Positions 3,001-51,964 of a stretch of DNA of 64,000 bases are shown here, piece after piece (position 1 is the stretch's first letter; each line of letters starts with the position of its first letter). The notes beneath the pieces are model-generated. The model worked only from the letters and a program-made list of their open reading frames with translations, was not told the origin of the DNA and did not search any database. This stretch comes from Escherichia coli. GTDB lineage: Bacteria; Pseudomonadota; Gammaproteobacteria; Enterobacterales; Enterobacteriaceae. Location of the stretch: NCBI RefSeq assembly GCF_003790525.1, contig NZ_CP033635.1; one strand, given 5' to 3'. Made by a program: the position numbers and the translations under genes.

Positions 3001-6000
3001 CCTGGACACGATCTTTACGGTGGTTACCAGCCCGGATAGCAGCCAGGCGAAAATGTGGGGGCATATGCCGGAAACGGTGACGGCTGAGGACGGTACGGTC
3101 TTTAAACGCCCGCGGTTACTGAAGGAACTGAGCAGTCAGACTGGGCGAACATCAACGCTTGAAGACAACGAAAACTGGGCGTTGTTTAACATTAATTATG
3201 CGAGCTCTTCCACGACGTATAGTGGCTGTGGAACCAACTATATTCCGACTCAGGCCGGTCTGACGTCACTGTTTGCTAATAATGCGGGCAACACCATGAA
3301 AACCGTGCAGGGCTGGCCGGTGGCAACGCGCTATTTGTCCAACACGTCCGACAATGGCAGCATGGAGCAGCGTAACTACAAGGCGGTCGATCTCAGCAAT
3401 GGCACGAGTGCGGCAGTGTCATCAACGGCGCTGCAACTGCTGACCTGTCAGACTACACCGGTAACCACGGTGAGCCAAATCCTGCTGGAAGCGGCAGATC
3501 CGGCGACGCTGGATACCACCTATAACGTGGTAAAAGCGAAAAAAGGCGAAGAATCCGTGGTGCGCGTCACCACCAAAGATGCACAAGGCAACCTGGTGGG
3601 CAATACGGCATTTATCCTGACGCGTGCCAACAGCGTGAGTCGGGCTAATGCATCAGCGACGATGAGCGTGGGCTCGTTGACGGTGACGGATGCCTGGGGC
3701 AATACGCGAAATAATTTCCAGTCGACAAGTGAAACCATTTACGGCGTGACCGGTGCCGACGGGTCAACGACATTGACCCTGAAACAGGATAACAGTACCG
3801 GGTTAAGAACCGATCTCACGGCAAAACTGGATACGTCCAGCAGCGTCAAGGCAACGCTACCGGTGGTCTTTACCGTCGTGACCAGCCCGGATTCGCCAAA
3901 AGCGAATTTTTGGGGACATATGGCCGAAACGGTGGCGGCCTCCGATGGTTCAGTCTATAAACGCCCACTGTTGCTGGCAGAGCTGGCCAACACTGGCGGG
4001 CGACAAATCAGTTCAGAGAACGGGGAAAGCTGGGTACGATTCACCTGGAATCAGTCGACAGATCCTTCTGTAAGCGGCTGCGGCGTTGCGTATATGCCAA
4101 CGTTGGCAGGCCTGCAAGCGTTGTATGACGCTAATAGTGGTAATGCAATGAGTACGGTACAGGGATGGCCGGTAAAAGCGACCTATCTCACCAATACCCC
4201 AAGTGACACGCAAACGGGGAGCCGTTACTACAATGTGGTGCAACTGGATTCTGGCGCAGCCTCGCAAATCACGACGAACACGGGTGTACTGCAAACCTGC
4301 CGTACAACGCCGTTGACGGCTGCCAGCCAGATTACGCTGGAGGCCGCGGATCCTGCGCAATTTGTCAGCATTGACAGCACGCTTAGCGCTGTCAAAGTGC
4401 AGAAAGGCGATAGCGTGCCGATCCGCATTTCGACTAAAGATGCGCAGGGCAATTTCGTCGGCAATACGCCGTTTGCCCTGAAACACGCGAACTCGATCAA
4501 TCGTCAAAATGTGTCGTCATCGCAGAAAGTGTCGGTCACGACGGAGGTGGGTACGACGGTGGATACCAGTGCAACAACCACCCTGTATGGCGTAACCGGG
4601 CCAGACGGAACCACCACGATGACGCTCCGACAGGATGCGTCCACCGGGTTAAGAACCGACTTTTATGCCCTGTTGAACGATACCGGCGTGTCGTCGGACA
4701 CCTTGCCGGTGATCTTTACCGTCATCACCAGCCCGGATACGCCGCTGGCGGCCAACTGGGGCCATATGGCGGAAACCTTTACCAGTAGCGAAGGCGTCAC
4801 CTTCAAGCGGCCTTCCCTCAAAGCTGAACTCTCTGGCGGTACGGCCATAACGGTCAATAATGAAGTCTGGTCGCGCCTGACAGCGGCGGAGAAAGTGGAT
4901 GCCAGCAAGGCCGGGTGTGATGAGACGTATCAACCGCTGGTGAATGACATGCAGGGGTTGTATGCGGATTACCCTAACGGCCAGTTAGGATCGGTGCTCG
5001 GCTTGCCGACGTCTGCCGGGTATTGGTGGGCCTACGACATGATGATGGTTTCTGGCAACTGGACTAATCAGGCATTTTCACCTGTTAATGGTCAGTTGAT
5101 GCAGGCATCGTCCAGCTATACGGCGATCGTGATGTGTCTGGTAGAACCACATACGGAAGCAGCCACAATAGAGCTTACTTCAACGGCGCAGGACGCAGCA
5201 AAATCGGCCAGTAATGGTGGACGACCGAGCGCCGTAGCGAAGAAAGGCGAGACGATTCCGTTGACGGTGACCGTGCGTGATAGCGCCGGGAACCCGATGC
5301 CATATGCTGAGTTTACCCTCACGCGTGAAACGACGCTGGATCGCTCGAAAGCAACCGTTAACACGAGTGCGGACGACCTTACCGTAACGGCATTGGTACC
5401 CGCGAATACAAATAGTGTGTTGGCAGCAAGTGGAGCAAAACTGATCGGCACGACGGGCAGCGATGGCAAAGCGACCTTTGAGGTGAGTCAGAATGCGACG
5501 ACCGGGCTGGCGACGCCGTTAACCGTGACGCTGGCGCGTGATACGACGAAAGCCGCCACGCTGGATGTTATCTATACGGTGATCACCAGCCCGGATTCGC
5601 CGAGTGCGAAATTCTGGGGGCATATGCCGGACACCTTTACCAGCTCGACGGGCGTCACCTTCAAACGACCGCTGCTGAAAGCAGAAACCAGCTCAGGCTC
5701 ATCGATTAGCTCTAACGGCGAAGTTTGGTCATATATGAGCAACGCGCAAAATTTAACATCGACAGATTGCCCGCTCGAAAATCAACCGCGCAGTAATGAG
5801 CTGTTGGATTTGTATAGTGATCACCCGAACGGCACGCTAATGACCGACCTGGGGTTACCCGTATATGCAGGTAACTGGTGGGCCTATGATATGGTCATGC
5901 TGAGTGGAACGTCGTGGACTTATCAACTCATCAGCCTGAAAGACGGAACCATTACGCAGAAGGGGACAACCAGTGCGTTGATGCTTTGCCTGGCACAGCC

Positions 6001-7684
6001 GCATCCGGCCGGCGTCAGCGTAACATTGACGTCATCCGCACAGGATGACGCCAGAACCACCAGCAATGGCGGCCGTCCCAGCGCGTCAGCGAAAAAAGGT
6101 AACTCAATACCGATTGTGGTAACGGTAAAAGATCGTGATGGCAACCCGTTGGCGGGCGAAGCGGTGACGCTCAAACGTGATTCAGCGTTGAGCCGTTCAG
6201 GAACAATCGTGGGGACGCCAGCGAATGAAATAAAGTTGACGGAACTGACGCCCGTGTCGGCGACATTCCCGCTGGTTTCAAATGGTACACAATGGCTTGG
6301 TTTCACCGGTAGCGATGGTACGGCGACATTCAATGTTGAACAGCCTGATACTGTCGGCCTGGCAATCCCCTTTAACGCCATCCTGGCCCGTGACACGGCA
6401 AAGGTATCTACTCTGGATCTGATTTTTACCGTCCTCACCAGCCCGGATGCCGCATTAGCAACTTACTGGGGCCATATGCCGGATACCGTCACGGCGGAAA
6501 ACGGTGCTGTCTTTGAGCGCCCTAAACTGTGGAAAGAGCTGCCGTCGACATCCGGGGTAAGTCAGATAACGAATAGCAATGAAGCCTGGCCAGTGTTTAA
6601 CGCAACGCAGAGGGCTGACAGCAATCTCAGCCCTTGTGAAGCGGCGCGTCGACCATTGAGCGATGATTTAGAAGCGCTCTATACACGTTATCCAGGAAAC
6701 ACGATTACCGCGCAAATTGGCTGGCCTACGCAGTATGCATGGTGGGCGGTGGATAACTGGGAAGGGGGCAGTAATCCGCAGGCCGTCAGCCTGGTAAATG
6801 GTTCGAGAGGCCAATATAATCCCGCTCATCAGGCCTGCCTGGTTAACCCGCGTGCGAGCGTTTCCAGCGTCACGCTGACATCAACGGCGCTGGATGACGC
6901 CACACAGGCGGCGACGGTGAAAAAAGGCGACGCCGCGCCCATTGTCGTTACCGTAAAAGACAGCGCCGGGAAGCCGGTGCCGAATATCGCTTTTATCCTA
7001 AAACGCGGTGAGGCCGTGCCGCGTAACAGCGGGGCGACGCTGTATGGCGATGTGGATGCGATGGACGATTTGACTGTGCAACCTTCATCCGGTGCGGCAG
7101 TCACGTTGGCTGACAGTGGAAATACCATCGACGGAGTCACGGGAGCGGACGGTACGGCAAGCTTTACCGTTCGTCAGGATAATACGCCAGGATATAAAAC
7201 GCCGTTGACGGTGACGCTGACGGATAACGCCACCATAACGGCGACGCTGGACACGATTTTCACCGTGCCGACCAGCCCGAATGTCGCCACGGCGTATTTC
7301 TGGGGTCATATGGCGGATACCGCCACGGTAAGTGGCAAGACGCTGCATCGCCCGCTATTAAAATCGGAGTTGCCGTCAGGCGCTACCGCAGCAGCAACGC
7401 CTGATGTAAATAATGAAACCTGGGCACTGGCGCATGTTATGGATTCCTCTAAATGGGATGTCGCGCAGCAGTGTGGCAGTATGAATAACGTGCCGAGCAG
7501 TGCCGAATTACAAACATTACACTCCGGCTTTAGCACATTGGGATGGCCGTCCTCGATAAGCTTCCCGTATTTATCTACTGATAAGGCTGGGTCGTTCTAT
7601 TGTGGTGTTGATGAAGGCTCTGGCAGTCTCAACTGTGGCATTCAGCCTGCGAAAACGCCGGGGTTTGCAACCTGCTTCCAGTAA
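1..7684 (+). CDS. giant surface adhesin, 5'-truncated by window edge; tandem Big_1-like (invasin/intimin-type) repeats; RatA/RatB/SinH-like
   Basis: Reading frame is open from position 2 to stop at 7684 (ORF track starts at a GTG at 65). About 9 repeats of ~280 aa each end in a TSPD-x5-WGHM motif (e.g. [35 protein letters not shown]). Lies next to xseA, where such adhesin loci occur in enterobacteria. Confidence 0.6.
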
Positions 7685-10801: not shown

Positions 10802-12379
10802 ATGACGGAAAACATTCATAAGCATAGCATCCTCATTCTGGACTTCGGTTCCCAGTATACTCAACTGGTTGCGCGCCGCGTGCGTGAGCTGGGCGTTTAC
10901 TGCGAACTGTGGGCGTGGGATGTGACAGAAGCACAAATTCGTGACTTCAATCCAAGCGGCATTATTCTTTCCGGCGGCCCGGAAAGCACCACCGAAGAAA
11001 ACAGCCCGCGTGCGCCGCAGTATGTCTTTGAAGCAGGCGTACCGGTATTCGGCGTTTGCTATGGCATGCAGACCATGGCGATGCAGTTGGGTGGTCACGT
11101 TGAAGCCTCTAACGAACGTGAATTTGGCTACGCGCAGGTTGAAGTCGTAAACGACAGCGCACTAGTTCGCGGTATCGAAGATGCGCTGACCGCAGACGGT
11201 AAACCTCTGCTCGATGTCTGGATGAGCCACGGCGATAAAGTTACCGCTATCCCGTCCGACTTCGTCACCGTAGCCAGCACCGAAAGCTGCCCGTTTGCCA
11301 TTATGGCTAACGAAGAAAAACGCTTCTATGGCGTACAGTTCCACCCGGAAGTGACTCACACCCGCCAGGGTATGCGCATGCTGGAGCGTTTTGTGCGTGA
11401 TATCTGCCAGTGTGAAGCCCTGTGGACGCCAGCGAAAATTATCGACGATGCTGTAGCCCGTATCCGCGAGCAGGTAGGCGACGATAAAGTCATCCTCGGC
11501 CTCTCTGGTGGCGTGGATTCCTCCGTGACCGCAATGCTGCTGCACCGCGCTATCGGTAAAAATCTGACTTGCGTATTCGTCGATAACGGCCTGCTGCGTC
11601 TCAACGAAGCAGAGCAGGTTCTGGATATGTTTGGCGATCACTTTGGTCTGAACATTGTTCACGTTCCGGCAGAAGATCGCTTCCTGTCAGCGTTGGCCGG
11701 CGAAAACGATCCGGAAGCAAAACGTAAAATCATCGGGCGCGTTTTCGTTGAAGTATTCGATGAAGAAGCACTGAAACTGGAAGACGTGAAGTGGCTGGCG
11801 CAGGGCACTATCTACCCTGACGTTATTGAATCTGCCGCATCTGCAACCGGTAAAGCACACGTCATCAAATCTCACCACAACGTGGGCGGCCTGCCGAAAG
11901 AGATGAAGATGGGCCTGGTTGAACCGCTGAAAGAGCTGTTCAAAGACGAAGTGCGTAAGATTGGTCTGGAGCTGGGCCTGCCGTACGACATGCTGTACCG
12001 TCACCCGTTCCCGGGACCAGGCCTTGGCGTTCGTGTTCTGGGTGAAGTGAAGAAAGAGTATTGTGACCTGCTGCGCCGTGCTGACGCCATCTTCATTGAA
12101 GAACTGCGTAAAGCGGACCTGTACGACAAAGTCAGCCAGGCGTTCACCGTCTTCCTGCCGGTACGTTCCGTTGGCGTAATGGGCGATGGTCGTAAGTATG
12201 ACTGGGTTGTCTCTCTGCGTGCTGTCGAAACCATCGACTTTATGACCGCACACTGGGCGCATCTGCCGTACGATTTCCTCGGTCGCGTTTCCAACCGCAT
12301 TATCAATGAAGTGAACGGTATTTCCCGCGTGGTGTATGACATCAGCGGCAAGCCGCCAGCTACCATTGAGTGGGAATGA
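10802..12379 (+). CDS. guaA: GMP synthase (glutamine-hydrolysing)
   Basis: 525-aa translation [40 protein letters not shown]... ends IEWE; immediately downstream of guaB. Confidence 0.95.
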
Positions 12380-12381
12380 TT
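12365..12381. repeat. attL core, 17-bp direct repeat ATTGAGTGGGAATGATT spanning the guaA stop codon
   Basis: Exact copy at 51948-51964; encodes the last guaA codons (I E W E stop). Confidence 0.8.
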
Positions 12382-17536: not shown

Positions 17537-17551
17537 TTACCGTTGAGGTAA
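17537..17551. promoter_or_regulatory. TTACC-N5-GGTAA operator-like site (perfect), leftward early promoter region
   Basis: TTACC GTTGA GGTAA. Confidence 0.5.
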
Positions 17552-17670: not shown

Positions 17671-18255
17671 TTATTGTTTGTTTTTTTCGTTCTGGTTGAT
17701 GACAAATTCAATGTAACTTTCGATCTTTGCTTTCTCGGTTTCGGGTAACAATGCGTAGCGCGAGCGATCATAGTTGATGGTCGCAGGGTCATGCGGATGA
17801 ATCAGTAGTTCATATCCGTGACGCCCGAATGCAGATGCAACATTCTCCAGGGTGGAAATGGAAACGCTGACCTCATTGTTTAACAGGCGGCTTATTGTCA
17901 CCTGGGCGACGCCGGATGCGCGGTGAAGTTTTCCCTGAGTTGAAAGGTCGCGGCTTTCACTCATCCAGCGTTCCAGGTTGTGAGCCGCCAGCTGACCTAT
18001 ATCACTCGGGCCGACAGGCTGAAAACCCTCCTGAGAAAGCGAGCGATCAATATCAAGCCAGTTACGGGGTTTATTGGCGGCAGCTTCAATTTTTCGCGCA
18101 ACCTGGTCGCCGATAACCTTCTTGCCAAGAGCCCAGCGGTTTACCAGATTTGCCTGAGTTCCAAGTTTTTCTGCCATCCGCGTCTGAACACCATTGAATT
18201 CACGGTCGATCAAGTCGTTGAGATTTTGCCTGCGGACGTCCTGGATACTTTTCAT
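17671..18255 (-). CDS. putative immunity repressor with two HTH regions, no S24 peptidase domain
   Basis: 194 aa; HTH-like segments TRMAEKLGTQANLVNRWALG and ASGVAQVTISRLLNNEVSVSISTLENVASAF; divergent from cro-like gene across an operator cluster. Confidence 0.6.
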   Translation of the reverse strand: MKSIQDVRRQNLNDLIDREFNGVQTRMAEKLGTQANLVNRWALGKKVIGDQVARKIEAAANKPRNWLDIDRSLSQEGFQPVGPSDIGQLAAHNLERWMSESRDLSTQGKLHRASGVAQVTISRLLNNEVSVSISTLENVASAFGRHGYELLIHPHDPATINYDRSRYALLPETEKAKIESYIEFVINQNEKNKQ

Positions 18256-44468: not shown

Positions 44469-44882
44469 ATGAAGGAATTATTGCTGTTATCGGTATTTTT
44501 GATATCCGCTTGCTCGACATCCTATGATGTTTATGACGGTGTTGATAAGGCATATTGCGACAAAGTTAAAATGGATTTTTCTCTTGCCAAGACGGCGAAG
44601 GATAGTTGTATTGATCACTACGTCAAGACTTATACCAAGCCAGCCTCATCGGCATCTGATATTGCTGAAGGTGCTGTGTTTGAGTGTAACAAGGTGATAT
44701 CCATCGCAGCGAGTTCTTCATACGATGCTGCTGTATGTGCAATGGCTGAAAGAAACGGCATGTCAGTGCAAAAAATTAATAGCATGATAAGCAGTAATGA
44801 CGAAGCCAAAATAAGAACTGATATCAGCTCGGTGAAAAAAGATGCCATGAACAGAGTTGTAAAATATCAGTCATCTTTATAA
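44469..44882 (+). CDS. lipoprotein (candidate superinfection-exclusion/cargo)
   Basis: Signal peptide with lipobox LISAC; low GC; followed by terminator. Confidence 0.5.
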   Translation: MKELLLLSVFLISACSTSYDVYDGVDKAYCDKVKMDFSLAKTAKDSCIDHYVKTYTKPASSASDIAEGAVFECNKVISIAASSSYDAAVCAMAERNGMSVQKINSMISSNDEAKIRTDISSVKKDAMNRVVKYQSSL

Positions 44883-44920: not shown

Positions 44921-45082
44921 TTAACGAATGCCACCGCCACCCGGGCGGGAATCCGCAGAACGCCCACCGCAGCGGGAGCCGTCAGCAGCAGTGTCGCTGT
45001 CGTGCTGACAACGACCGGCAAAGGCCTGAGTTGAAGCTACCAGAGACAACAAAACGAACAGTGCAGCAAATGCTTTTTTCAT
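44921..45082 (-). CDS. small secreted Gly/Arg-rich peptide with two Cys (53 aa precursor)
   Basis: MKKAFAALFVLLSLVASTQAFA signal peptide then GRCQHDSDTAADGSRCGGRSADSRPGGGGIR. Confidence 0.3.
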   Translation of the reverse strand: MKKAFAALFVLLSLVASTQAFAGRCQHDSDTAADGSRCGGRSADSRPGGGGIR

Positions 45083-45152: not shown

Positions 45153-45175
45153 ACAAAAAAGCCCGCAGCGCGGGC
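45153..45175 (-). terminator. rho-independent terminator after two-gene cassette
   Basis: gcccgc agcg cgggc hairpin with T-run on minus strand. Confidence 0.5.
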
Positions 45176-45615
45176 TATTCTTCTTCATCATTAAAAAGCG
45201 GATTGTTGTTTCCATCTGATGAAAGGAAAGGTATGTGTTCTCTTGAAAATCCAACAATGACAATTTCATTATCATTTTTTGCATAATGAATGCATTCATT
45301 AGAATGCCTTCCGCCAGGGTTGAAATTTAAGTTAATGGTATAATTCTTAAATGTGTTTGGATACCATGTTGGCCCACAATGATAATGCCAATAATTCTCT
45401 TGCTCATAATTGTCTGAGCCGGGAATTTTATCATGGTTATCATCAACCCACGAGGGCTTGTTTTTTCCAACAAGCGCCCTTCCATTGGCAACATCCTCTA
45501 AAAAACTTTGTATGATTTTTATTTCATCATCAGTAAGGAAAGGTCCGTCTACAGCGAAAGGGGTGTTGCTTTCCCCATGTAGAAAACTATTAGATATTCT
45601 AATGTTAAACTTCAA
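45175..45615 (-). CDS. hypothetical ~147-aa protein, downstream gene of two-gene cassette (candidate toxin/effector)
   Basis: TTG start with SD AGGAG 6 nt upstream (an in-frame ATG at 45756 has no SD and overlaps the upstream gene); contains WHYHCGP and GGRHSNECIH segments; low GC. Confidence 0.4.
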   Translation of the reverse strand: MKFNIRISNSFLHGESNTPFAVDGPFLTDDEIKIIQSFLEDVANGRALVGKNKPSWVDDNHDKIPGSDNYEQENYWHYHCGPTWYPNTFKNYTINLNFNPGGRHSNECIHYAKNDNEIVIVGFSREHIPFLSSDGNNNPLFNDEEE

Positions 45616-45635
45616 GGAAAACTCCTGATGTGCTT

Positions 45636-45803
45636 CTATTTGGAGCGAAATGCCGCCTTGAAGTCGCTGAAAGATGTTCCTGTCTGGTAAACCATATCCT
45701 TGTCGCGCTCTTTGCTTGCGCGGCCAAGCATAACTTTTCCAATGACATCCCAGCATTGCTTGGCTTGTTCATTGTGCTGAGTACGATTTTTCAACGCTGT
45801 CAT
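45636..45803 (-). CDS. hypothetical 55-aa protein, upstream gene of two-gene cassette (candidate antitoxin/regulator)
   Basis: ATG with SD AGGAGG; MTALKNRTQHNEQAKQCWDVIGKVMLGRASKERDKDMVYQTGTSFSDFKAAFRSK; not in ORF track (<60 aa). Confidence 0.4.
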   Translation of the reverse strand: MTALKNRTQHNEQAKQCWDVIGKVMLGRASKERDKDMVYQTGTSFSDFKAAFRSK

Positions 45804-45815
45804 ATCGCGCCTCCT

Positions 45816-45830
45816 TTACCTTTAAGGTAA
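45816..45830. promoter_or_regulatory. TTACC-N5-GGTAA operator-like site (perfect) upstream of two-gene cassette
   Basis: TTACC TTTAA GGTAA. Confidence 0.5.
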
Positions 45831-45902
45831 TAGTACGCTATTCACCCACAGTCTGCAATCTGTACAGAATTATTTAAAGGCACATCCCTGTGCCGCCGCC
45901 CG

Positions 45903-46592
45903 TCAGAAGAACCCAGCCTTGTCGTTGATGTACTCCGCGTGGGTCTGGATATCACGCAGGCATTTGCTCACACCAACAATGTAGCAGAACATGGTGGTCA
46001 GCTCCGCCGCCGCGCCCGATACGTCGTGCCCGTCTTCCTGTAACTGGTTCAGCAGATTCATCAGCAGTGAGTTCTCCGTCAGGCCGAGAACACCAGACGG
46101 AGAATGAATCAGGCTGCGGTAGCCGGGCTTCAGTGGGGCACTGTAGGTTTTGTTCTCTATCTTCATTGCCTGCATCACTGCTGATGCTGTGGCGTTGGCT
46201 ACCTGGTCGGCAACTATCTTTATGCGTTCTTCCTGCGGGAGCGAGTTTTTAATGTAACTTCCGGTGCGGCGGATCTGAGGAAGAACCTCACCTGTAACCC
46301 ATTTACGAAAGCGGTAGGGGATAGTGCCTGGTGTCACTGCGTCGCGGCAGCGGAGGATCAGTGTGTAGAGGCCTGACTCGTTGATAATATTGGTTTCACC
46401 TTGACGGCCTAAGTTAAATTTAGCCCTTTCATCATCATCAAGAGATTTTATTGACATAGTGGGGTTTGTCAGTTGAAGAGCTTTAATAACGTCTTTGGCA
46501 ACAAACCAAGGATTTCCATCAATAACAATGGCTCGAATGGTGGCTTCTGATTCAAAATGAAAAACAGATGGGGTTACGTTAGCAGTCATAGT
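45903..46592 (-). CDS. Bro-N domain protein (antirepressor-like)
   Basis: Start MTANVTPSVFHFESEATIRAIVIDGNPWFVAKDVIKALQL typical of Bro-N/KilA-N-type N-terminus; SD AAAGGTGAT. Confidence 0.55.
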   Translation of the reverse strand, partial: TMTANVTPSVFHFESEATIRAIVIDGNPWFVAKDVIKALQLTNPTMSIKSLDDDERAKFNLGRQGETNIINESGLYTLILRCRDAVTPGTIPYRFRKWVTGEVLPQIRRTGSYIKNSLPQEERIKIVADQVANATASAVMQAMKIENKTYSAPLKPGYRSLIHSPSGVLGLTENSLLMNLLNQLQEDGHDVSGAAAELTTMFCYIVGVSKCLRDIQTHAEYINDKAGFF

Positions 46593-46855
46593 GATCACCT
46601 TTGTAGTTAGGTTAATCACCACTACCGACGCCAATCGGTTGGTGGTGAACTGTGCAGGGTTGGCGTAACCGGCTACAAAGGACCCGGCGCACCTTTCGGT
46701 GCCCCCACACAGCCCACCATAGAATAGGTGCGCTTTACACATAAAAAAACCGCTTATGCGGCATATGTGCCTCTGTAGTAACCCGGGACGCCAATCCCGG
46801 CACTGGATTTTGCCAGTGCCCGATTACTATGGCACAAGAGGAGTGCGATGTAAAT

Positions 46856-46870
46856 TTACCGAAAAGGTAA
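46856..46870. promoter_or_regulatory. TTACC-N5-GGTAA operator-like site (perfect)
   Basis: TTACC GAAAA GGTAA. Confidence 0.5.
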
Positions 46871-46901
46871 TAATAAACACTCTACTTGGTAATTGCAAAC
46901 C

Positions 46902-47159
46902 TTATCTGGTTTGTTTTCGTAATTGTTCGGCACAATAGTCGAGATGTGTTTGCAGATCCCGCATAGACATCTGTGAGCTGGTGACGTAGTTAATCAGTGC
47001 AGTCAGTTCGGCAAGTGGGCCATCGACATTAAATCCATCCTTATCGAGATCCCGGAGTAATTTCATCAAGTGCGATCCCTCCACCAGTGACCTGACGCCT
47101 CCCGGCGTGTGAATCCTTTCGGTAAATCCGTCTTCCAGTGGATAGTGATACTGCTGCAT
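46902..47159 (-). CDS. small protein homologous to the C-terminal domain of the adjacent Bro-N protein
   Basis: IHTPGGVRSLVEGSHLMKLLRDLDKDGFNVDGPLAELT aligns with IHSPSGVLGLTENSLLMNLLNQLQEDGHDVSGAAAELT of 45903-46592. Confidence 0.45.
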   Translation of the reverse strand: MQQYHYPLEDGFTERIHTPGGVRSLVEGSHLMKLLRDLDKDGFNVDGPLAELTALINYVTSSQMSMRDLQTHLDYCAEQLRKQTR

Positions 47160-47235
47160 CTTATCTTCTCCATGCAATAACTGTATATTTATACAGTATC
47201 AAATAATTTGTTTGCTATCCAGCACGTTTTGCAAA

Positions 47236-51947: not shown

Positions 51948-51964
51948 ATTGAGTGGGAATGATT
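51948..51964. repeat. attR core, 17-bp direct repeat ATTGAGTGGGAATGATT
   Basis: Exact copy of 12365-12381. Confidence 0.8.

Follow-up and report, generated by a model that had tools for sequence, protein, structure and literature searches.

The YafN-YafO module of Escherichia coli encodes YafO, a ribosome-dependent mRNA interferase (PMC7781912), and the hotspots of P2/P4 temperate phages are known to carry variable cargo (PMC9122126). Here, we describe a locus that recalls both. It lies in a 64,000-nucleotide stretch of E. coli contig NZ_CP033635.1 (assembly GCF_003790525.1; hereafter, the window), which contains an epsilon15/phiV10-like (Uetakevirus) prophage of approximately 39.6 kb. The element under study is a two-gene cassette of this prophage, encoding proteins of 55 and 146 amino acids (aa) and occupying a short site (the slot) that related prophages fill with other genes. 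We consider it rather probable that the pair is a type II toxin-antitoxin-like module, in which a RelE-fold toxin, probably an RNase, is neutralized by the C-terminal core of its smaller partner while transcription is delegated to the slot. The pair would then represent a previously unnamed sequence family of a known type of toxin-antitoxin system.

In its action, the pair can be likened to the RelBE, DinJ-YafQ, and YafNO classes. However, whereas the RelE, YafQ, YoeB, and HigB toxins measure approximately 85 to 100 aa, the 146-aa protein has extra N-terminal and loop elements, displays its own motifs (GKNKPSW and WHYHCG), and matches no model of the RelE/ParE clan in Pfam or NCBIfam. Compared with YafN-YafO, neither the 146-aa protein nor 30 distant members of its family match Pfam YafO, the partner is unrelated to YafN, and the dinB/SOS operon context is missing. 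Prophage modules of the PaaA2-ParE2 type offer another parallel, as their short antitoxin also lacks a DNA-binding domain. In contrast to PaaR2-PaaA2-ParE2 of E. coli O157 cryptic prophages, the cassette has no regulator gene, so that control would come from phage-wide operators; in addition, its predicted toxin is more like the RNase branch, and a version of the pair in Klebsiella has a third upstream gene (95 aa).

The cassette and the slot comprise the following features (positions are those of the window).

45636-45803, minus strand: partner gene (putative antitoxin), 55 aa, ATG start
45175-45615, minus strand: putative toxin gene (RelE/ParE fold), 146 aa, TTG start
45810-45816, minus strand: Shine-Dalgarno sequence AAGGAGG of the 55-aa gene, 6 nucleotides (nt) before the ATG at 45803
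45622-45626, minus strand: Shine-Dalgarno sequence AGGAG of the toxin gene, within the intergenic gap and 6 nt before the TTG at 45615
45816-45830, no strand: palindrome TTACCTTAAAGGTAA (TTACC-N5-GGTAA), upstream of the 55-aa gene; right-hand boundary of the slot
45160-45176, minus strand: intrinsic terminator hairpin AGCCCGCGCTGCGGGCT with a T-run to ~45150; left-hand boundary of the slot
45853-45858, minus strand: putative -35 hexamer TTGCAG of the slot promoter, 17 nt upstream of TACTAT
45830-45835, minus strand: putative -10 hexamer TACTAT, its final T being the first base of the palindrome
45879-45894, minus strand: hairpin GGCACA-GGGA-TGTGCC followed by TTTAAATAATT, directly 3' of the ant stop codon (found by inspection)

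An earlier note on this DNA, made from the sequence alone, had described two co-oriented minus-strand genes, 20 nt apart and each with a good Shine-Dalgarno sequence, and the open reading frames (ORFs) and sequence confirm this, with a larger product of 146 aa. The terminator hairpin overlaps the toxin stop codon. The -35 hexamer of the slot agrees with the consensus at three of its six bases, and the promoter is a putative one. The hairpin at 45879-45894 is kept in all slot variants and may act as a weak terminator between ant and the slot, although it is not reported by the terminator scan. The cassette is AT-rich, as had been noted (40.2% G+C versus 48.7% for the prophage, within the lowest 5% of equal-sized segments), though this is mainly due to the larger gene, since the toxin gene has 35.6% G+C and the partner gene 47.0%. 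The ratio of nonsynonymous to synonymous substitutions (dN/dS) is 0.13 to 0.16 for the partner gene, indicating purifying selection, and dN is 0.13 to 0.15 with saturated dS for the toxin gene. Given these values and homologues down to 38% identity, we judge both genes to be real and under purifying selection.

A longer toxin ORF of 193 aa, starting from the ATG at 45756, was rejected, as homologues begin at MKF/MKI and the added stretch would run across the partner gene in another frame. A UniProt entry (AFDB A0A3A6T6D0) corresponds to this over-extended ORF, and in the record of phage phiv142-3 a 52-aa out-of-frame Orf10 (2491-2649 of that locus) is annotated inside the toxin gene while the 146-aa gene is omitted. 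An Rfam scan of the cassette returned just a subthreshold Trp_leader match (21.5 bits versus a gathering score of 41; E = 0.71), which we take as chance.

The earlier note recognized no family for either protein, and this observation stands. The 146-aa protein has no Pfam match even at an E value of ≤10 and none in NCBIfam or PADLOC, its sole family match across these databases and PHROG being PHROG 5954 ("unknown function"). All its relatives carry the name "hypothetical" and form 34 clusters at 90% identity. A profile search (E ≤ 1e-3) recovers 122 representatives at 50% identity, and the family is spread across Enterobacterales, Pasteurellaceae, Aeromonas, Neisseria, and Moraxella; none of 30 distant relatives sampled contains a Pfam domain (E ≤ 0.001). 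Within a 92-member alignment, H79 and H127 are invariant and G50, N52, K53, S55, H77, Y78, H110, Y111, and F130 nearly so, and the motifs GKNKPSW, WHYHxG, (V/C)IHY, and SxxHxPF characterize the family.

The AlphaFold model of the 146-aa protein (predicted local distance difference test [pLDDT], 92.4; predicted template modeling score, 0.87) displays the alpha/beta fold of the RelE/ParE superfamily, with an N-terminal strand, two helices, and an antiparallel sheet of three to four strands. When the model is compared with the PDB, the RNases RelE, YafQ, YoeB, and HigB rank above every ParE entry. Foldseek against AFDB50 retrieves uncharacterized relatives only, and PDB sequence searches with family profiles give only spurious matches (a cytochrome trimer, Cks1, and a designed repeat protein). 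On the basis of this predicted structure, the 146-aa protein is most likely a RelE/ParE-superfamily toxin acting as an mRNA endonuclease.

The 55-aa partner matches PHROG 8607, also of "unknown function," and has no Pfam, NCBIfam, or PADLOC match; a Pfam scan of 11 partners was likewise negative. Its predicted structure consists of a long helix, a loop, and a short helix. Searches of Pfam and the PDB yield no meaningful PDB sequence match and no RHH, HTH, or Phd DNA-binding domain, which distinguishes this new family of approximately 55 aa from the antitoxins of RelE/ParE-type systems.

The partner is consistently found together with the toxin. We surveyed 80 loci with a toxin homologue (77 from IMG/VR, plus Serratia, Klebsiella, and Erwinia), and in every one of them a co-oriented ORF ends between -29 and +31 nt from the toxin start. 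In 43 of these loci, where the toxin is at least 50% identical, this ORF is a 55-aa homologue detectable by hidden Markov model (E ≤ 8e-17). The partners in the other 37 have 69 aa or 185 to 195 aa, and their last ~32 residues carry the same core, hhL(G/S)R-x6-9-(Y/F)-x3-4-S(F/V)x(D/E)(F/I/L)KxA. Residue R28 is invariant in all 23 aligned pairs as well as among 11 closer-clade partners, which also share an invariant W18. Pairwise identities of partner and toxin are correlated (r = 0.84), and the genes are thus adjacent, co-oriented, and inherited as a unit, as in type II gene pairs. The resemblance of the small-then-larger layout to toxin-antitoxin modules, which had been pointed out before, is borne out both by this upstream partner and by the RelE/ParE-superfamily fold of the larger protein. 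The toxin start is TTG or GTG in 15 of 15 distinct enterobacterial sequences and ATG in distant clades.

We observe the pair in very different surroundings. E. coli, Serratia, and Pectobacterium have it beside Bro-N/ant genes; a Klebsiella lambdoid prophage has it, together with a third gene, in the nin region; in Pantoea it lies among tail genes, and in a Pasteurellaceae genome a MuF polyvalent protein is encoded alongside it. In Erwinia persicina, where its neighbors are accA and an IF-2B-family gene, the surroundings contain no phage genes. Across all these contexts, the two genes travel together. The three genes of the Klebsiella module encode 95 aa, 102 aa (with the partner core at the C terminus), and the toxin. 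In the distant clade (IMG/VR loci with toxins 38 to 46% identical), partners of 185 to 195 aa have a hydrophobic N-terminal segment (MTNLSLNPIFE...KTAAMSALFIAPLA) and share with the 55-aa protein no more than the C-terminal core, a sequence pattern that suggests a membrane-anchored antitoxin variant.

A fused AlphaFold model, in which partner and toxin were joined by a (GGGGS)6 linker with a paired alignment and which was judged by pLDDT, gives values of 82 to 95 for partner residues 11 to 50 and 91 to 95 for residues 21 to 50. The model contains one beta bridge between the two parts. Partner residues 37 and 38 are predicted to pair with a toxin strand, as they form the sole beta segment of the partner. 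We regard the modeled complex as supportive rather than decisive.

The position of the cassette proved to be a site of exchange. Prophages with different cargo are identical from the ant stop codon through ...GTGAATAGCGTACTATTACC-N5-GGTAA and diverge directly after GGTAA. Of six other cargo types, five are closed by the same terminator hairpin and T-run as the cassette; their stop codons abut the stem, and the conserved 53-aa gene comes next. Since the palindrome and the terminator are common to prophages with entirely different cargo, they belong to the phage backbone and delimit a slot; both had been noticed earlier and are indeed present, but they are not the cassette's own, as was then supposed. 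A census of 80 IMG/VR loci containing the conserved upstream 20-mer returned the following cargos.

Cargo 1: 55+146 aa, the pair under study; 10 loci and the window
Cargo 2: 72+125 aa; 17 loci
Cargo 3: 59+181 aa; at least 16 loci; toxin matches Pfam YafO (E = 1.7e-4)
Cargo 4: 108+170 aa; 9 loci; YafO-like toxin as judged by eye, no Pfam scan having been run
Cargo 5: 69+251/288 aa; membrane protein
Cargo 6: a single protein of 210 to 211 aa
Cargo 7: 62+110 aa; both membrane proteins

In the Uetakevirus prophages of E. coli, no fewer than seven cargos thus alternate in the slot (45160-45830), each excluding the others; all are of "unknown function" in PHROG, and the slot is empty in phiV10. This agrees with the moron-like position proposed in the earlier note, which had suggested looking for different cargo at equivalent positions of related prophages. 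Of 5,426 complete E. coli genomes, 368 contain the slot. The 748-bp cassette query is complete in 76 of these, being 100% identical in E. coli MS 198-1, and a further ~292 share just the 85 bp upstream of the first start codon. PADLOC v2 matches none of the seven cargos, and a defense role of the slot is therefore unproven. Like the P2/P4 hotspots, the slot shows conserved flanks around a short region of mutually exclusive, mostly AT-rich gene sets. It differs from them in its location in Uetakevirus and in its boundaries, which are a promoter/operator at one end and the shared terminator at the opposite end.

The palindrome at the slot is one of many in the prophage. In the window we observe 10 exact copies of TTACC-N5-GGTAA, and 17 sites with at most one mismatch compared to 1.08 expected.

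17537, 17599, 18311, 20598, 20660, 24851, 28387, 45816, 46856, and 47236: exact palindrome sites
12515, 18359, 18696, 24869, and 27770: palindrome sites with one mismatch

Copies stand on both sides of a cI-like 194-aa gene (17671-18255), including the interval that separates it from a cro-like gene, and others head most transcription units, including the ant leader (46856-46870); some are paired, 48 or 62 bp apart. The same network is present in phiV10 (14 sites versus 0.81 expected), and Uetakevirus-like loci are rich in the motif. At 17537 (minus), 20598 (plus), 20660 (plus), 24851 (plus), and 46856 (minus), a -10-like hexamer extends into the left half-site. Promoter-like pairs are found at 17537 (minus; TTGACA-17-AATTAT) and at the ant leader (TTGCAA-17-TATTAT), and TTGCAG-17-TACTAT of the slot stands in the same register on the palindrome. 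By analogy with the dispersed C1 operators of P1, the palindrome is probably the operator of the prophage repressor, and the simplest reading of the slot sequence is that of a repressor-controlled expression site. Our literature search retrieved no description of a dispersed TTACC-N5-GGTAA motif.

The palindrome as a private operator of the cassette, or as a binding site of the 55-aa protein, was rejected: it occurs in 10 copies, flanks the cI and cro genes, precedes unrelated cargos, and is absent from 210 kb of Pasteurellaceae loci carrying the pair. The Klebsiella module has a solitary ATTACC-N5-GGTAAT upstream (2391-2405 in loci L011/L012; 2343 in L052/L054), with no further copy in those loci, and this site could have come along when the module was transferred from a Uetakevirus-like backbone, or it could reflect a functional tie.

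The cassette is part of a leftward block. The virion genes on one side of it, for an 824-aa protein and a lipoprotein, and the tailspike gene on the other are oriented rightward. In the 5'-to-3' direction of the minus strand, the block comprises a 91-aa gene, a promoter/operator, an isrK/a1b1-like leader with C4 RNA, the Bro-N/ant gene (which matches PHROG 130), the cassette, and a 53-aa gene. Three Rfam matches lie upstream of ant.

46638-46724, minus strand: C4 antisense RNA (79.5 bits)
46743-46819, minus strand: isrK (74.7 bits)
46780-46832, minus strand: c4-a1b1 target (near threshold)

From these RNAs, we infer that ant is under an RNA switch of the P1/P7 immI type. Like the immI region (c4-icd-ant), the block has C4 RNA and an a1b1/isrK-like leader before ant, and an operator-like motif recurs over many transcription units. 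However, the motif here is the symmetric TTACC-N5-GGTAA, toxin-antitoxin-like cargo follows ant, and the repressor is cI-like (with two HTH motifs in the phiV10 record). For ant itself, we favor the RefSeq start at 46589 (228 aa), since a 279-aa call starting at 46742 overlaps the C4 RNA.

We propose the following mechanism for the pair. The active surface of the toxin, according to the model, would be formed by GKNKPSW on strand 2, WHYH on strand 3, IHY on strand 4, and SxxH after strand 5. The 55-aa protein would inhibit the toxin directly, binding it via its ~32-residue C-terminal core (hhLGR ... Y ... SFxDFKxA). It would be made in excess over the toxin, as favored by an antitoxin gene that comes first with an ATG and a strong Shine-Dalgarno sequence and by the conserved weak TTG/GTG start of the toxin. 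The pair would not autoregulate. Transcription would instead start from a weak sigma-70-like promoter, into which one of the prophage-wide operators extends, pass through the cargo, and end at the shared terminator. The slot lies at the distal end of the C4-RNA/ant (immI-like) block, and given this position and its promoter/operator arrangement, its expression is probably tied to the prophage repressor. Other small-plus-large pairs in the same slot, two of them YafO-like, lend support to this proposal.

Several observations weigh against a type II module. The 146-aa protein does not belong to any RelE/ParE sequence family of Pfam or NCBIfam. Its link to YafO, though suggestive, is weak: hhalign of the toxin family against a YafO alignment gives a P value of 0.007 and a probability of 5.5% with the motifs in register, and with a broader toxin profile the P value is 0.057, the probabilities ranging from about 1 to 5.5%. 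The partner has no recognizable DNA-binding domain, and we saw no sign of autoregulation, a classical type II trait. Finally, if the palindrome is the repressor operator, the module may be silent in lysogens, which is a poor fit to abortive infection that protects the lysogen. Local hhalign of the toxin family against two prophage YafO-like proteins gave a P value of 0.57, and no signal was obtained against other slot cargos (251, 125, and 181 aa) as single-sequence templates. Because the sequence link to YafO is weak, we place the 146-aa protein in the RelE/ParE superfamily by fold and refrain from assigning it to the YafO family.

Four other explanations of the cassette were considered. The 146-aa protein could be a nontoxic RelE-fold accessory factor that acts with the small protein in lytic growth, in ribosome or RNA modulation, anti-defense, or host takeover. 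The operator-like site and the location at the end of the ant block would suit such a factor, as they suggest expression on induction and not in lysogeny, and the 185- to 195-aa Pasteurellaceae partners with their hydrophobic N-terminal segment are unusual among antitoxins. Nevertheless, we consider it unlikely: in the Erwinia chromosome the pair stands alone, in the manner of addiction modules; a weak start codon of the toxin and an antitoxin gene placed first are in keeping with a harmful product that has to be controlled; and YafO-like toxins are found among the neighboring cargos.

A toxin-antitoxin module with a non-RNase effector as its toxin, for example a ParE-like gyrase poison, would share the fold superfamily and the paired layout, but we regard it as quite unlikely. 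Besides the PDB ranking, which places the RNases above every ParE entry, there are the conserved His, Lys, and Tyr residues of the toxin family, which cluster on the strands of the sheet. Such a cluster is typical of the RNase branch (YafQ, YoeB, and HigB) and not of ParE.

That the genes encode conserved virion structural or assembly proteins is suggested by their location between virion genes and the tailspike gene, yet it is very improbable, as the pair is missing from phiV10 and most related prophages (only 76 of the 368 slot-bearing E. coli genomes have it), turns up in other phage types at positions unrelated to this one and outside phages as well, and has a RelE-like predicted fold. The structural reading, which the earlier note had itself named as the outcome that would overturn its proposal, is effectively refuted. 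The same note had offered the R-x6-H segment GGRHSNECIH as a weak HEPN-like RNase motif, and although the spacing of R103 and H110 fits Rx4-6H, a HEPN RNase has next to no probability and was ruled out by conservation and fold, as close homologues have K, M, E, L, or Q in place of R103 and also vary at H104, the predicted structure is a RelE-like alpha/beta sheet and not all-helical, and no HEPN Pfam match was found.

With the type II toxin-antitoxin-like module as the preferred reading of the pair, a role in abortive infection or defense is plausible by analogy with other hotspots, though the possible repression in lysogens argues for caution. More speculatively, and only as a tentative proposal, the slot may be a repressor-wired hotspot of phage competition, in which the pair would be a RelE-fold abortive-infection module fired when the repressor is inactivated or titrated and the other six cargos would serve further defense or counter-defense functions. 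The triggers would then be induction or a superinfecting phage bringing an antirepressor. Literature searches covering the protein accessions, toxin-antitoxin or defense genes of Uetakevirus, and YafO-like phage genes returned nothing on the family or the slot.

The wider prophage is delimited by two exact copies of an attachment (att) core, for which the same sequence is given for phiV10, epsilon15, and ZX5 at the 3' end of guaA (PMC9782041). The closest phage records are HEMP4, phiv142-3, TL-2011b, ZX5, and phiV10. Besides the att copies, two genes next to the slot are listed here.

12365-12381 and 51948-51964: att core ATTGAGTGGGAATGATT, two exact copies
44921-45082, minus strand: 53-aa signal-peptide gene (MKKAFAALFVLLSLVASTQAFA...; WP_000708858), PHROG 14503 "membrane associated protein," moron category
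44469-44882, plus strand: 137-aa lipoprotein gene, PHROG 8691, 3' of the gene for the 824-aa virion protein

Nearly all variants have the 53-aa gene 3' of the slot, with a separate TTGACG-17-ATAGAT-like promoter region. The lipoprotein gene occupies a second variable site, filled by a 46-aa membrane protein in phiV10, a 118-aa ORF in phiv142-3, and a 98-aa ORF in H10407. The 91-aa ORF (46902-47177, minus strand) is homologous to the C-terminal domain of Ant (45903-46150, minus strand); PHROG 450 and 15539 match both, so that a free-standing copy of this domain is encoded beside ant. A third variable site is seen in MS 198-1, STEC1585, and H10407, which carry an insertion of ~840 bp between the ant leader and the 85/91-aa gene. 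It encodes a 243-aa plus-strand ORF (5837-6565 of the MS 198-1 locus) and is absent from the window (~46750-46900); a related misc_feature is annotated in TL-2011b.

Taken by itself, one more RelE-fold toxin-antitoxin family would be unsurprising to specialists, and the interest lies mainly in the multicargo slot and the operator network. Even so, a fold and a testable mechanism are now assigned to a protein family called "hypothetical" in every database, and the cognate partner of this candidate toxin family is defined together with its conserved, putative binding core. Uetakevirus prophages, which are common in E. coli, have a precisely bounded site that appears to serve expression, and since none of its cargos is found in current defense catalogues, it offers a compact place to seek new phage-competition functions. 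Together, the slot and the dispersed, probable operators could show how a prophage times such genes.

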